From NCBI RefSeq assembly GCF_030384885.1, contig NZ_CP128613.1: 64,000 nucleotides of DNA, one strand, 5' to 3'. Shown piece after piece: positions 10,203 through 36,885 of this stretch. Both the position numbers and the translations under genes were made by a program. Numbering within the stretch: the first letter of the stretch is position 1; every line of letters starts with the position of its first letter. The DNA comes from Escherichia coli (lineage in GTDB: Bacteria > Pseudomonadota > Gammaproteobacteria > Enterobacterales > Enterobacteriaceae). Below the pieces are notes generated by a model. That model was not told where the DNA came from, did not search any database, and saw nothing but the letters and a program-made list of their open reading frames with translations.

Positions 10203-10568
10203 GTCGACAGGGAGTCAGACAACGAAGTGAACATCAGGATGATGACACTTCTGAAGGACACACCAGGAGGGTGTTTCAGGGAAAGGCTTCTGGATGAAGC
10301 GAAGAGGATGACGCAGGACGCGTTAAAGGACACCTCCAGGATGGAGAATGAGAACCGGTCAGGATGATTCGGTGGGTCAGGAAGGCCAGGGACACTTCAG
10401 GATGAAGTATCACATCGGGGTGGTGTGAGCAGGAAGCAATAGTTCAGGATGAACGATTGGCCGCAAGGCCAGAGGAAAAGTTGTCAAGGATGAGCAGGGA
10501 GCAACAAAAGTAGCTGGAATGCTGCGAAACGAACCGGGAGCACTGTGAATACAGTGCTCCCTTTTTTT
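10203..10568 (+). ncRNA. csrB: CsrB small RNA (CsrA-sequestering)
   Basis: About 18 copies of CAGGA(U/A)G-type GGA motifs in roughly 360 nt, beginning GTCGACAGGGAGTCAGACAACG and ending in hairpin GGGAGCACTGTGAATACAGTGCTCCC plus T7; no credible ORF. Confidence 0.9.
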
Positions 10569-10613
10569 ATTCCTGCTATCCTTCGCGGCAGTTTTTCTTA
10601 TTGAGGTTGCTTT

Positions 10614-11742: not shown

Positions 11743-12192
11743 ATGGCGGAAATTGGTATTTTTGTGGGCACCATGTACGGAAATTCACTGTTAGTGGCGG
11801 AAGAAGCGGAAGCAATTCTGACCGCGCAGGGCCACAAAGCAACGGTATTTGAAGATCCTGAATTAAGTGACTGGCTGCCCTATCAGGATAAGTTCGTTCT
11901 GGTGGTTACGTCCACGACCGGGCAGGGCGACCTTCCTGATAGCATTGTGCCACTTTTTCAGGGAATCAAAGATAGCCTGGGCTTCCAGCCTAATCTGCGT
12001 TATGGCGTAATTGCGCTCGGCGACAGTAGCTATGTGAATTTCTGCAACGGCGGCAAACAGTTCGATGCCTTGTTGCAGGAACAGAGTGCGCAGCGGATAG
12101 GGGAAATGCTGCTGATTGACGCCAGTGATAACCCGGAACCGGAAACGGAATCAAATCCGTGGGTCGAACAGTGGGGCACGCTGTTGTCCTGA
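11743..12192 (+). CDS. yqcA: Flavodoxin-like protein
   Basis: 149-aa [29 protein letters not shown]..., flavodoxin fold signature. Confidence 0.85.
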
Positions 12193-12245
12193 TACGTTCA
12201 GCGAGCGGTAAATGCCGTTTTAGCGGTGCTGAATCGAATCTTTTC

Positions 12246-12300
12246 AGGCAAATGCCAGTAAAAACTGCTTCATAGCGCGGATTTTTACTGGCGTTTGCCT
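12246..12300. other. Long near-perfect inverted repeat (19-bp arms, 17-nt spacer)
   Basis: aggcaaatgccagtaaaaa ...17 nt... tttttactggcgtttgcct; arms match at 18 of 19 positions; lies between yqcA and gudP. Confidence 0.6.
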
Positions 12301-12626
12301 GGAGTCAAGCGATCCATTTCATACTCTTCTTTATTTCTTCGTTTTAACCCTTCCTTTCTTGTTCTTGTTTTCATTTCCGTGAAGTGGATTCCACCGTCCA
12401 GGGCTAATGCCAAAATCGGGCCTCATTGAACGCATTAATGTTGTGTTGTTGCACGGTGAGCCGCTATGGCGCGCTTTTTATACTGTTATTGCCAGATATA
12501 AACACGCGCCGTATTCGGCGAACGACCTATAAAAACGGCAAAAAACACCCTACGTCACCTCTGATTTCCTGGCGATGTCGCAGTCCAGAGTGAGCGTGGC
12601 TAACGCGAATTTTCAGGAGTGCAACA

Positions 12627-13979
12627 ATGAGTTCTTTAAGTCAGGCTGCAAGCAGTGTGGAAAAACGCACGAATGCTCGTTACTGGATAGTGGTGATGTT
12701 GTTTATCGTCACATCCTTCAACTACGGCGACCGCGCTACGCTCTCTATCGCCGGTTCGGAAATGGCCAAAGATATCGGCCTTGATCCAGTGGGAATGGGT
12801 TATGTGTTCTCAGCTTTCTCATGGGCTTATGTTATCGGGCAGATCCCTGGTGGCTGGTTGCTGGACCGTTTTGGTTCAAAACGCGTCTACTTCTGGTCGA
12901 TCTTTATCTGGTCGATGTTTACCTTGCTGCAAGGCTTCGTCGATATTTTTAGTGGATTCGGCATTATCGTTGCCCTGTTTACGCTGCGCTTCCTAGTCGG
13001 GCTTGCTGAAGCGCCATCTTTCCCCGGTAACAGTCGCATTGTAGCGGCCTGGTTTCCGGCGCAGGAAAGGGGAACGGCGGTGTCTATTTTTAACTCCGCC
13101 CAATACTTCGCAACGGTGATCTTCGCGCCGATTATGGGCTGGCTGACTCATGAAGTGGGTTGGTCACATGTCTTCTTCTTCATGGGCGGTCTGGGCATTG
13201 TCATCAGCTTTATCTGGTTGAAAGTCATCCATGAGCCAAATCAACATCCGGGCGTAAATCAGAAAGAGCTGGAGTACATCGCCGCGGGTGGTGCGCTGAT
13301 CAATATGGATCAGCAAAACACCAAAGTTAAAGTACCGTTCAGCGTGAAGTGGGGGCAGATCAAACAGCTGCTCGGGTCACGGATGATGATCGGCGTTTAT
13401 ATCGGTCAGTACTGTATCAACGCCCTGACTTACTTCTTTATTACCTGGTTCCCGGTTTATCTGGTGCAGGCACGCGGGATGTCGATTCTGAAAGCGGGCT
13501 TTGTGGCTTCCGTTCCGGCGGTTTGCGGTTTTATCGGCGGTGTGCTGGGTGGGATTATTTCTGACTGGCTGATGCGCCGCACGGGATCGCTGAACATTGC
13601 GCGTAAAACACCGATCGTAATGGGCATGTTGCTGTCGATGGTGATGGTGTTCTGCAACTACGTCAACGTTGAGTGGATGATCATCGGCTTTATGGCGCTG
13701 GCCTTCTTCGGTAAGGGCATCGGGGCGCTGGGTTGGGCAGTAATGGCAGATACCGCCCCAAAAGAGATCAGCGGTCTTTCCGGTGGCCTGTTCAACATGT
13801 TCGGTAACATTTCTGGCATCGTCACGCCAATCGCAATTGGTTATATCGTTGGCACGACTGGCTCGTTTAATGGGGCGCTGATTTATGTTGGTGTTCATGC
13901 CTTAATCGCGGTACTGAGCTACCTGGTGCTGGTGGGCGATATCAAGCGTATCGAGTTGAAACCTGTTGCGGGGCAATAA
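12627..13979 (+). CDS. gudP: Glucarate/galactarate MFS transporter
   Basis: 450-aa polytopic [29 protein letters not shown]...; first gene of gudPXD. Confidence 0.88.
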
Positions 13980-16682: not shown

Positions 16683-16803
16683 GACAGAAAACCAAAACCG
16701 GCTCTGTCTGGAGCCGGGTTGAGTCTAATGCCAAACGCAAAATTGCCTGTTGCGCTACGTATCAGGCCTACATTATTTTTTTAATTCATTGAATTTAATT
16801 GGT

Positions 16804-16846
16804 GTTTATGCCGGATAAGGCGTTAACGCCGCATCCGGCATAAACA
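16804..16846. repeat. REP element (palindromic unit)
   Basis: gtttatgccggataaggcgttaacgccgcatccggcataaac, a near-perfect palindrome of the classic GCCGGATG...CATCCGGC type, between convergent gudD and barA. Confidence 0.7.
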
Positions 16847-16913
16847 CAGGCACCTTGTCACCAGTCTAAAACCAGCGTTATAAAAAGCCGATTGCTACTC
16901 GACAAGACGTCCA

Positions 16914-36836: not shown

Positions 36837-36885
36837 GAGAAAGGTAACTTCCCTCTCGCGGGGGAAGTTACCTTTCTTTTTTTTT
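36837..36885 (+). terminator. Intrinsic-terminator-like hairpin in the ygcW 5' leader (attenuator candidate)
   Basis: GAGAAAGGTAACTTCCC-loop-GGGAAGTTACCTTTC followed by T9; ends about 25 nt before the ygcW ATG. Confidence 0.65.

Follow-up and report, generated by a model that had tools for sequence, protein, structure and literature searches.

In the intergenic region between yqcA and the glucarate operon gudPXD of Escherichia coli lies an inverted repeat that encodes a very stable RNA hairpin marking the 3′ terminus of yqcA mRNA. Elements of this kind are ordinary: it is a transcript-end stem-loop descended from a classical terminator, and neither a site for a regulator nor a novel RNA gene. 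More specifically, the hairpin is probably the protective 3′-end stem-loop of a yqcA transcript terminated by Rho, remodelled from an intrinsic terminator. The element is unannotated in E. coli, and the hairpin, its covariation and its terminator ancestry were previously undescribed; the 3′ end itself is already present in published supplementary tables.

The hairpin and its genomic setting

The window, which is the whole 64-kb stretch of DNA analysed, is E. coli chromosome. The genes csrB, yqcC, truC, yqcA, gudP and gudX are all encoded on its plus strand, and the two that flank the hairpin, yqcA and gudP, are co-directional rather than convergent. The relevant features are as follows.

10212–10571, plus strand: csrB (Rfam, 381 bits)
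11743–12192, plus strand: coding sequence of yqcA, a flavodoxin (open reading frame; RefSeq annotation under the BLAST matches)
12242–12264, plus strand: left (5′) strand of the extended stem, comprising the 19-nt arm 12246–12264 and four basal pairs
12246–12264, plus strand: left arm of the inverted repeat, AGGCAAATGCCAGTAAAAA (read from the sequence)
12265–12281, plus strand: apical region (spacer) of 17 nt, comprising the decayed terminator core and one bulged A
12282–12300, plus strand: right arm of the inverted repeat, TTTTTACTGGCGTTTGCCT (read from the sequence)
12282–12304, plus strand: right (3′) strand of the extended stem, opening with the ancestral terminator T-tract TTTTT at 12282–12286
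12627–13979, plus strand: gudP, first gene of gudPXD (open reading frame; RefSeq annotation under the BLAST matches)

The repeat occupies 12246–12300, with two 19-nt arms that are complementary at 18 of 19 positions and a 17-nt spacer, exactly as a first-pass annotation of the sequence had placed it. The gene names given there were also right, the region matching yqcA and gudP of E. coli, and its distances of ~50 nt from the yqcA stop codon and ~330 nt to gudP are close to those measured: the stop codon ends at 12192, 53 nt before the hairpin, and the gudP ATG at 12627 is 326 nt downstream of it. The corresponding coordinates in E. coli K-12 (NC_000913.3) are 2,922,427–2,922,481 on the minus strand, where no feature is annotated.

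The hairpin was found by word-11 BLAST in 5425 of 5426 complete E. coli genomes, at one place per genome and with no feature annotated under the matches, and the 75-nt query was identical in 4320 of the 5425. No second copy occurs in the 64-kb window, including by a covariance model search. Literature searches on yqcA together with gudP or small RNAs, and on CdaR binding sites, returned nothing that concerns this intergenic region.

When folded, the stem reaches 23 pairs (12242–12264 with 12282–12304), above which sits an inner stem of 4 bp (12265–12268 with 12277–12280), for a total of 23 + 4 predicted pairs and one bulge. The inner stem is the E. coli version of the core, CUGC/GCGG, with 4 bp, an 8-nt loop and a folding energy of −3.9 kcal/mol. 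An A5 and a T5 run flank this core symmetrically, and the T-tract at 12282–12286 is now paired to the A-tract at 12260–12264 inside the long stem. The one odd pair of the arms, T12253/G12293, is a U·G wobble in plus-strand RNA and a C·A mismatch in minus-strand RNA. As plus-strand RNA, the 55-nt hairpin has a predicted energy of −34.2 kcal/mol (z = −8.0; none of 200 shuffles was as good), compared with −27.6 kcal/mol for the minus strand, where the core is weaker and the arms carry the C·A mismatch. The hairpin ranks first among the inverted repeats of the window; for 19-nt arms with at most one mismatch and a spacer of up to 60 nt, the chance expectation is 8e-4 per window or 0.06 per 4.6-Mb genome.

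Two small open reading frames that touch this region were considered and rejected. The frame and peptide of a minus-strand ORF at 12285–12413 (42 aa, ending in the right arm) are unconserved outside Escherichia. A plus-strand mini-ORF starting from the ATG in GGCAAATGCC lacks a Shine-Dalgarno sequence and is variable in length, and its ATG is missing in C. koseri and Raoultella. A candidate minus-strand promoter, TTGACT-16-AAAAAT, would direct transcription through the hairpin, with a CRP-like half-site centred 41.5 bp upstream of its inferred start; its −35 element is conserved, but its −10 element is not (TAAAAA or AAAACC in other genera).

Terminator ancestry and remodelling in Escherichia

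The region was compared across 80 Enterobacteriaceae loci, fetched with YqcA as the query. The order yqcA-gudP is kept in most of them, with an intergenic region of 278–515 nt. A homologous 60-nt module is present in 26 of the 80 loci and aligns almost gap-free with the window, giving 27 sequences in total. Carriers include Escherichia, the C. koseri, C. amalonaticus and C. sedlakii groups, Salmonella, Silvania, Superficieibacter, Kosakonia, Phytobacter and Raoultella. The 54 remaining loci gave no hit to the covariance model; the module has been lost altogether in many genera. In Enterobacter and the C. freundii group, for instance, gudP and its proximal promoter boxes are kept and the module is absent; REP-like sequences occupy the intergenic region in its place.

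The stem pairing of the module is kept by compensatory changes. In the alignment, 69% of the cells pair, as opposed to 31–48% with slid partners. Pair 14–46, for example, is C-G in nine sequences, A-U in seven and U-A in three, and five of the six pairs of the inner helix have changes on both sides. Compensatory double changes are seen even within Citrobacter, where A-T, T-A and C-G occur at one pair. Such retention of pairing fits base pairing rather than protein recognition. The 27 homologues also contain more G·U than A·C cells (85 vs 36), and a T-run follows the core on the plus strand in most genera; the selected molecule is therefore most likely plus-strand RNA. The covariance model score is 68 bits on the plus strand and 39 bits on the minus strand. 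Within Escherichia alone, the wobble counts (4 vs 2) are too small to be informative.

Outside Escherichia, the centre of the module is shaped like a terminator, with an A-tract, a GC-containing core stem of 5–7 bp and a T-tract, e.g., AAAAGCCTTTCATTTGAAAGGGTTTTT. The Citrobacter core reads CCTTTC-ATTT-GAAAGG. The position after a gene and the order of A-tract, stem and T-tract are those of A-tract intrinsic terminators, including bidirectional ones, and the homologues of Citrobacter, Superficieibacter and Raoultella look like canonical members of that class. A scan with a terminator consensus called the core in one Citrobacter locus (L008) on both strands and in one Superficieibacter locus (L055) on the plus strand, and called nothing at the hairpin in E. 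coli. Similarly, a canonical stem (GC-rich, ~5–14 bp, with a short loop) is present in L008 and L055 and absent in E. coli, where the GC core is cut to 4 bp and the T-tract is sequestered in the stem.

In Escherichia, the core has decayed to these 4 bp (−3.9 kcal/mol) and the right flank of the module has gone from TTTTCATAGG to TTTGCCTGGA. Of the four differences that separate the right arm from that of Citrobacter, three add pairing with the left box. Pairing at the stem base (TTTGCCTG) is confined to Escherichia; other genera have TTTTCAT or TTTTCAC. The 60-nt module folds at −25 to −39 kcal/mol in Escherichia vs −7 to −27 kcal/mol elsewhere. Judged by these alignments, the hairpin is a remodelled intrinsic terminator, in which decay of the core was combined with three right-arm substitutions that lengthened the pairing of A-tract and T-tract. 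Templated quasipalindrome correction could have been the source of the stem extension, in one step.

Divergence within the genus was counted between the window and five other Escherichia lineages, with the following results.

Stem arms: 10/230 differences (4%)
Loop: 30/85 differences (35%), the fastest-evolving part
Fourfold-degenerate sites of yqcA and gudP: 16–31%, about 22%

A slow stem with a free loop is the signature of a selected hairpin and argues against a neutral relic.

The yqcA 3′ end, Rho and the sequence beyond the hairpin

A 3′ terminus of yqcA is recorded on the minus strand of MG1655 by the TRS study (PMC10687069), with a peak at 2,922,416–2,922,425 and a dominant position of 2,922,418; other data sets have dominant positions of 2,922,417 and 2,922,420. 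The terminus is annotated there as “Distant primary” of yqcA, with 118 nt of 3′UTR and no U run longer than 3. When checked on the row of the thrL attenuator, the sequence windows of that table span −50 to +1 nt and −10 to +20 nt around the terminus; so read, they differ from the table legend and agree with the coordinate conversion. The end lies 3–6 nt beyond the extended stem and 21–28 nt beyond the internal U5 run. The transcript that ends here is probably truC-yqcA. The first-pass annotation had been prepared to give up the element if it were not conserved in other strains and neither transcript 3′ ends nor protein binding mapped to it; as it turns out, conservation was observed and the hairpin has a transcript 3′ end mapped to it (PMC10687069). 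No 3′ end at the hairpin appears, under any of three conditions, in the curated Term-seq list of Adams et al. 2021 (PMC7815308), an absence that carries little weight because yqcA is weakly expressed.

Adams et al. also report a Rho termination region here, with a Rho score of 3.98 (p = 9e-8; PMC7815308). Reads upstream and downstream numbered 114/23 in untreated cells and 112/90 with bicyclomycin, so that the downstream/upstream ratio rises from 0.20 to 0.80, with 800-nt windows, a coarse position and low counts (PMC7815308). The best position is 300 nt past the hairpin, and windows of 800 nt cannot tell which transcripts are affected. The signal could come from transcripts that start at the gudP promoter, with Rho acting on these and not on yqcA read-through. 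The features beyond and around the hairpin are listed here.

12229–12237, plus strand: CTGAATCGA, the 5′ part of the yqcA 3′UTR box CTGAATCGWGTTAGC (cross-genus alignments)
12304–12326, plus strand: conserved boxes GTCAAGCGA and TTTCAYAC, directly 3′ of the hairpin (alignments; also in the module-less loci L030, L040, L062 and L066)
12307–12310, plus strand: steady-state 3′ end of yqcA mRNA in MG1655 (PMC10687069, converted via the K-12 annotation)
12313–12385, plus strand: candidate Rho-loading (rut) tract, pyrimidine-rich, G-poor and predicted to be unpaired (composition, folding)
12479–12484, plus strand: predicted −10 element TATACT of the gudP promoter, with GTGAGC 17 nt upstream (inferred from sequence, not a mapped start)
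12609, plus strand: best-scoring position of the Rho termination region (MG1655 2,922,118, minus strand; Adams et al. 2021, PMC7815308, Supplementary file 2)

The stretch 12300–12390 holds the most pyrimidine-rich 78 nt of the window on either strand (77%; fraction 2e-5). In 78-nt segments over the tract, G falls to 9% and the excess of C over G reaches +0.17, and YC dimers number 17–18 per 80 nt, placing the tract in the top 1.5–2.6%. Every genus has more C than G in the homologous spacer (means of 33% vs 13%). Within Escherichia, the tract shows 8/245 differences. On composition, then, 12313–12385 may be a rut site; it is more T-rich (58%) than C-rich (26%), and is therefore a moderate rut candidate only.

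A mechanism can be proposed from these elements. RNA polymerase would pass the hairpin, since the 4-bp core and U5 would amount at best to a weak intrinsic terminator; a weak contribution of intrinsic termination at the internal U5 is possible. Rho would load on the unstructured, pyrimidine-rich, G-poor tract at ~12313–12385 and release the transcript before or within the gudP leader, so that gudPXD would not be expressed from the upstream operon. Exonucleases working in the 3′-to-5′ direction would trim the RNA back and stall a few nucleotides from the 23-bp stem, yielding a sharp 3′ end at 12307–12310 and a protected yqcA message. Exonuclease trimming would, in such a scheme, set the yqcA 3′ end, and the hairpin would stabilise the yqcA mRNA.

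The nearest known counterparts are the transcripts of Dar and Sorek (2018, PMC6061677), in which Rho-dependent termination is accompanied by a stable stem-loop that lacks a U tail, by a precisely placed 3′ end shortly after it and by an excess of C over G beyond. The yqcA hairpin resembles these loops in its stable stem with no U-rich sequence following, in its sharp 3′ end a few nucleotides further on, in the G-poor, C-over-G and predicted-unpaired sequence right after it (with the caveat that T at 58% exceeds C at 26%) and, at the coarse resolution of the 800-nt windows, in the bicyclomycin-sensitive read-through reported for the region. It differs in the exceptional length of its stem (23 bp, capped by 4 bp; −34 kcal/mol), in its internal A5/U5 pairing, which betrays an origin as an intrinsic terminator, and in the mainly T-rich nature of the tract that follows, and the Rho dependence of this particular 3′ end is putative. 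A likeness also exists to the REP/BIME class of 3′ mRNA stabilisers, as both are intergenic palindromic hairpins located 3′ of a gene and able to block 3′ exonucleases. Unlike REP/BIME, however, the yqcA hairpin is single-copy and its sequence is unrelated to REP; found only once in each of 5425 E. coli genomes, it does not behave as a dispersed repeat of the REP/BIME, ERIC or BoxC kind.

The sequence around the hairpin is itself conserved in an orderly manner. Box CTGAATCGWGTTAGC, just upstream, hardly varies among Citrobacter, Salmonella, Kosakonia, Silvania and Superficieibacter; Escherichia retains no more than its first 9 nt. Box GTCAAGCGA, just downstream, is able to form a GTC-AAGC-GAC mini-hairpin, and both it and TTTCAYAC may be sites that belong, at the DNA level, to the region upstream of gudP. 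The predicted gudP promoter has homologues in L008 and L055, where a consensus scan found GTGAGA-17-TATACT. In 30 loci, TCAAGCGA and CGTGAA lie 73 or 74 nt apart despite variable intervening sequence, and such an exact length suggests a DNA-level constraint on the spacer, instead of or besides a rut function. The larger unit from CTGAATCG to CCGTGAAGT contains six invariant boxes and measures 162–164 nt in Escherichia, Citrobacter, Kosakonia, Silvania and Superficieibacter (154 nt in Salmonella). Several TTCAC/GTGAA boxes flank the hairpin, two distal ones being degenerate in E. coli. RNAalifold on the 164-nt unit returned three invariant mini-hairpins only, with no covariation. The constant spacing suggests that the hairpin is embedded in some phased DNA-level architecture 5′ of gudP, or else in an undescribed RNA function; it is nonetheless improbable that yqcA and the gudP core promoter are separated by an undescribed regulatory unit of ~164 nt to which the hairpin belongs.

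Alternative readings

Of the three readings offered by the first-pass annotation, a terminator or insulator comes closest to the truth. Its kernel, i.e., descent from a terminator and a yqcA 3′ end just past the hairpin, holds, and its canonical or bidirectional form does not hold in E. coli. A Rho-independent, possibly bidirectional, terminator or insulator that still works, with the hairpin itself releasing RNA polymerase that arrives from yqcA and perhaps also from the other side, is unlikely. In its favour are the canonical-looking terminators from which the hairpin descends, among them the L008 core called on both strands, the symmetry of the A5 and T5 runs about the core and the yqcA 3′ end that adjoins the hairpin. 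The E. coli core, however, has only 4 bp with an 8-nt loop and was not called by the terminator scan; its U5 is buried in the stem, with the 3′ end 21–28 nt past it and outside any U-tract, and no U-tract follows the full stem. The flanking genes share a strand, and nothing is known there that would need termination on the opposite one. Moreover, inhibition of Rho lifts downstream coverage from 20% to 80% of upstream, so that the blocking of read-through into gudP would need Rho rather than be Rho-independent (PMC7815308, coarse 800-nt windows). It is also improbable that the hairpin is functionless in E. coli, as a decaying terminator whose palindrome was perfected by templated (strand-switch) mutation and then tolerated. 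The three right-arm differences that create pairs would be expected from quasipalindrome correction and from selection alike, and when reverse-complemented the L003 loop is similar to that of lineages L002 and L005 (13/17 positions, vs 10/17 directly; 10 of 2000 shuffles were as good), an inversion that would fit recombination between the arms. Loss of the module in many genera would suit a relic as well. Yet within Escherichia the arms have diverged by only ~4%, against ~22% at fourfold sites and 35% in the loop, the hairpin is present in all but one of the 5426 E. coli genomes (4320 of them identical over 75 nt), and a transcript end maps to it.

The remaining readings concern RNA and DNA-binding functions. 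The first-pass suggestion of a small structured RNA is not supported, and a 3′ module of a regulatory RNA (3′UTR-derived or independent, with the CUGAAUCG box as its seed) or an RNase III site in the 23–27-bp duplex is quite improbable. RNase III cuts near-perfect double-stranded RNA of ~20 bp or more, a length that the 23 + 4 predicted pairs would satisfy, and a 3′UTR box conserved across genera sits just upstream of the hairpin. Read starts are two to three times denser in the yqcA 3′UTR than in the coding sequence, but yqcA is not flagged as an outlier for 3′UTR transcripts in any of the three libraries (PMC10687069). In addition, no conserved sigma-70 promoter occurs between the yqcA stop and the box, the mapped end lacks a U-tail for Hfq, the box is half-degenerate in E. 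coli, and the literature searches found no mention of such an RNA. Rfam 15 gave no match in E. coli or five other genera: in E. coli 9000–14000, only CsrB reaches the gathering score, the matches overlapping the hairpin being chance-level eukaryotic and viral families (E = 5.9 and 8.4), and in the five other genera only CsrB appears at E ≤ 1. Least probable is a DNA operator, in which the arms would be bound by the dimeric glucarate/galactarate regulator (CdaR) or another protein. The location upstream of gudP, the recurrence of GGC-N4-GCC at 12207, 12247, 12290 and 12402 and the rigid spacing (162–164 nt overall, 73/74 nt to the CGTGAA box), which suggests phased protein sites nearby, speak for it. 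The idea fails because the arms covary, the gar region has no copy of the motif and genera without the module keep the gudP promoter boxes. That is, compensatory double changes in the arms, even within Citrobacter, are what a fixed protein-DNA code would forbid; the E. coli gar control region (garP-garD), searched for the GGCAAATGCC motif and for shared words, has only a chance-level 8-mer in common; and Enterobacter and the C. freundii group have gudP with its proximal boxes and no module. Furthermore, 19-nt arms with their centres 36 bp apart do not resemble known dimer operators, and the hairpin is ~218 bp upstream of the predicted gudP −10.

For E. coli, a protective stem-loop on a Rho-terminated yqcA transcript would give a concrete annotation to a universally conserved 55-nt element, namely the 3′ boundary of the yqcA transcript, and would make the hairpin a shield that separates the inducible glucarate operon from a housekeeping operon. 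In practice the gain is modest: it concerns operon and terminator annotation and serves as a reminder for terminator predictors, which miss this element. If the larger ~164-nt unit were real, it could be a conditional Rho-dependent attenuator or insulator, through which truC-yqcA read-through feeds gudPXD under some condition, or alternatively a phased nucleoprotein assembly for the sugar-diacid regulator, with the hairpin active in it as DNA or RNA. The hairpin also offers a tidy evolutionary example: in a single genus, what was a classical intrinsic terminator seems to have become a long U-less stem-loop that works with Rho.

Spacing and recurring boxes in the yqcA–gudP intergenic unit

The intergenic unit that runs from CTGAATCG to CCGTGAAGT (window 12229-12390) and includes the hairpin is 162–164 nt long in nearly all genera that possess it; the Salmonella unit measures 154 nt. 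The homologous stretch was delimited in ten of the Enterobacteriaceae loci retrieved with YqcA as the query (L007, L008, L018, L021, L023, L046, L047, L055, L056, and L063). Within it, 30 loci keep TCAAGCGA and CGTGAA 73 or 74 nt apart, with variable sequence in between. Because this spacing is rigid, the alignments suggest phased protein sites or some other constraint on length.

Two kinds of short box recur in this region. TTCAC/GTGAA-type boxes occur at 12294-12300, 12317-12324, and 12377-12395, and read TTTTCAC, TTTCACAC, and CCGTGAAG...TTCCAC. E. coli carries the two distal boxes in degenerate form (TTTGCCT and TTTCATAC), and the word TTTCATTT is common to the proximal box and the E. coli garP–garD region. 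Boxes of this type are possible half-sites of a single regulator. The second kind, GG(C/T)(A/T)AATGCC, is present in the intergenic region as three direct copies (12207-12217, 12247-12257, and 12402-12412). Across genera this box reduces to GGC-N4-GCC with a free center, and it is able to form a 3-bp mini-hairpin.

The hairpin, its loop, and neighboring features

The 17-nt hairpin loops of two Escherichia loci, L002 (3487-3546) and L005 (3503-3562), resemble the reverse complement of other Escherichia loops, such as those of L003 (3502-3561) and the window (12265-12281). They match at 13 of 17 positions as the reverse complement versus 10 of 17 directly in the comparison with L003, and 10 of 2000 shuffles did as well. 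On this comparison, the loop may have been flipped through recombination between the hairpin arms.

Outside Escherichia, an additional GC-rich hairpin, CCCTCCCCCTACCGGGAGGG, directly follows the yqcA stop codon, lying in the first 30 nt after the gene (L006–L008, L018, L021–L023, L055–L057, L065, and L069). Where it is present, the terminator-like module (the 60-nt homologue of the hairpin) is the second structure of the 3′ region. E. coli has no such GC-rich first hairpin after the yqcA stop.

Other strong inverted repeats of the window are as follows.

810-853, a 22-nt palindrome
16802-16847, a REP-like 23-nt palindrome
36838-36877, a 16-nt repeat whose perfectly matching arms lie 8 nt apart (AGAAAGGTAACTTCCC/GGGAAGTTACCTTTCT)

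On the minus strand, a promoter-like site (TTGACT-16-AAAAAT, 12281-12308) is directed through the hairpin toward yqcA. Its TTGAC corresponds to the invariant GTCAAG box read on the minus strand, and its -10 is not conserved. A CRP-like half-site, AGCGA-N6-TCATA, with TCACA in place of TCATA in other genera, is located ~41.5 bp upstream of the inferred minus-strand start. The same strand carries an ORF (12285-12413), rich in basic residues, that begins at TTG (42 aa) or at an internal ATG (29 aa) and ends inside the right arm of the hairpin. The 42-aa ORF is probably not a gene, since neither its frame nor its peptide is conserved outside Escherichia.

The pyrimidine tract and the gudP leader

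Positions 12300-12390 hold the richest 78-nt pyrimidine stretch (77%) on either strand of the window. Escherichia lineages hardly differ over the greater part of this stretch (12327-12375): 8 differences in 245, compared with ~22% at fourfold-degenerate sites. A 12-bp long-range pairing is predicted between 12311-12322 (GAUCCAUUUCAU) and 12379-12390 (GUGAAGUGGAUU), and would close off a pyrimidine loop of 58 unpaired nucleotides; in the DNA, too, these boxes make up an inverted repeat. In L088, the locus of the clinical E. coli strain EC6563 (NZ_CP095856.1), gudPXD has been lost and the hairpin kept; the match ends inside the pyrimidine tract (breakpoint at window 12349), with barA directly after it.

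The presumed gudP leader contains a small GC hairpin, CGCCGTATTCGGCG, at 12507-12520. The published Rho termination region scores best at 12609 (Adams et al. 2021, PMC7815308). Since this is 18 nt before the gudP ATG, gudP may have Rho-dependent leader control of its own.
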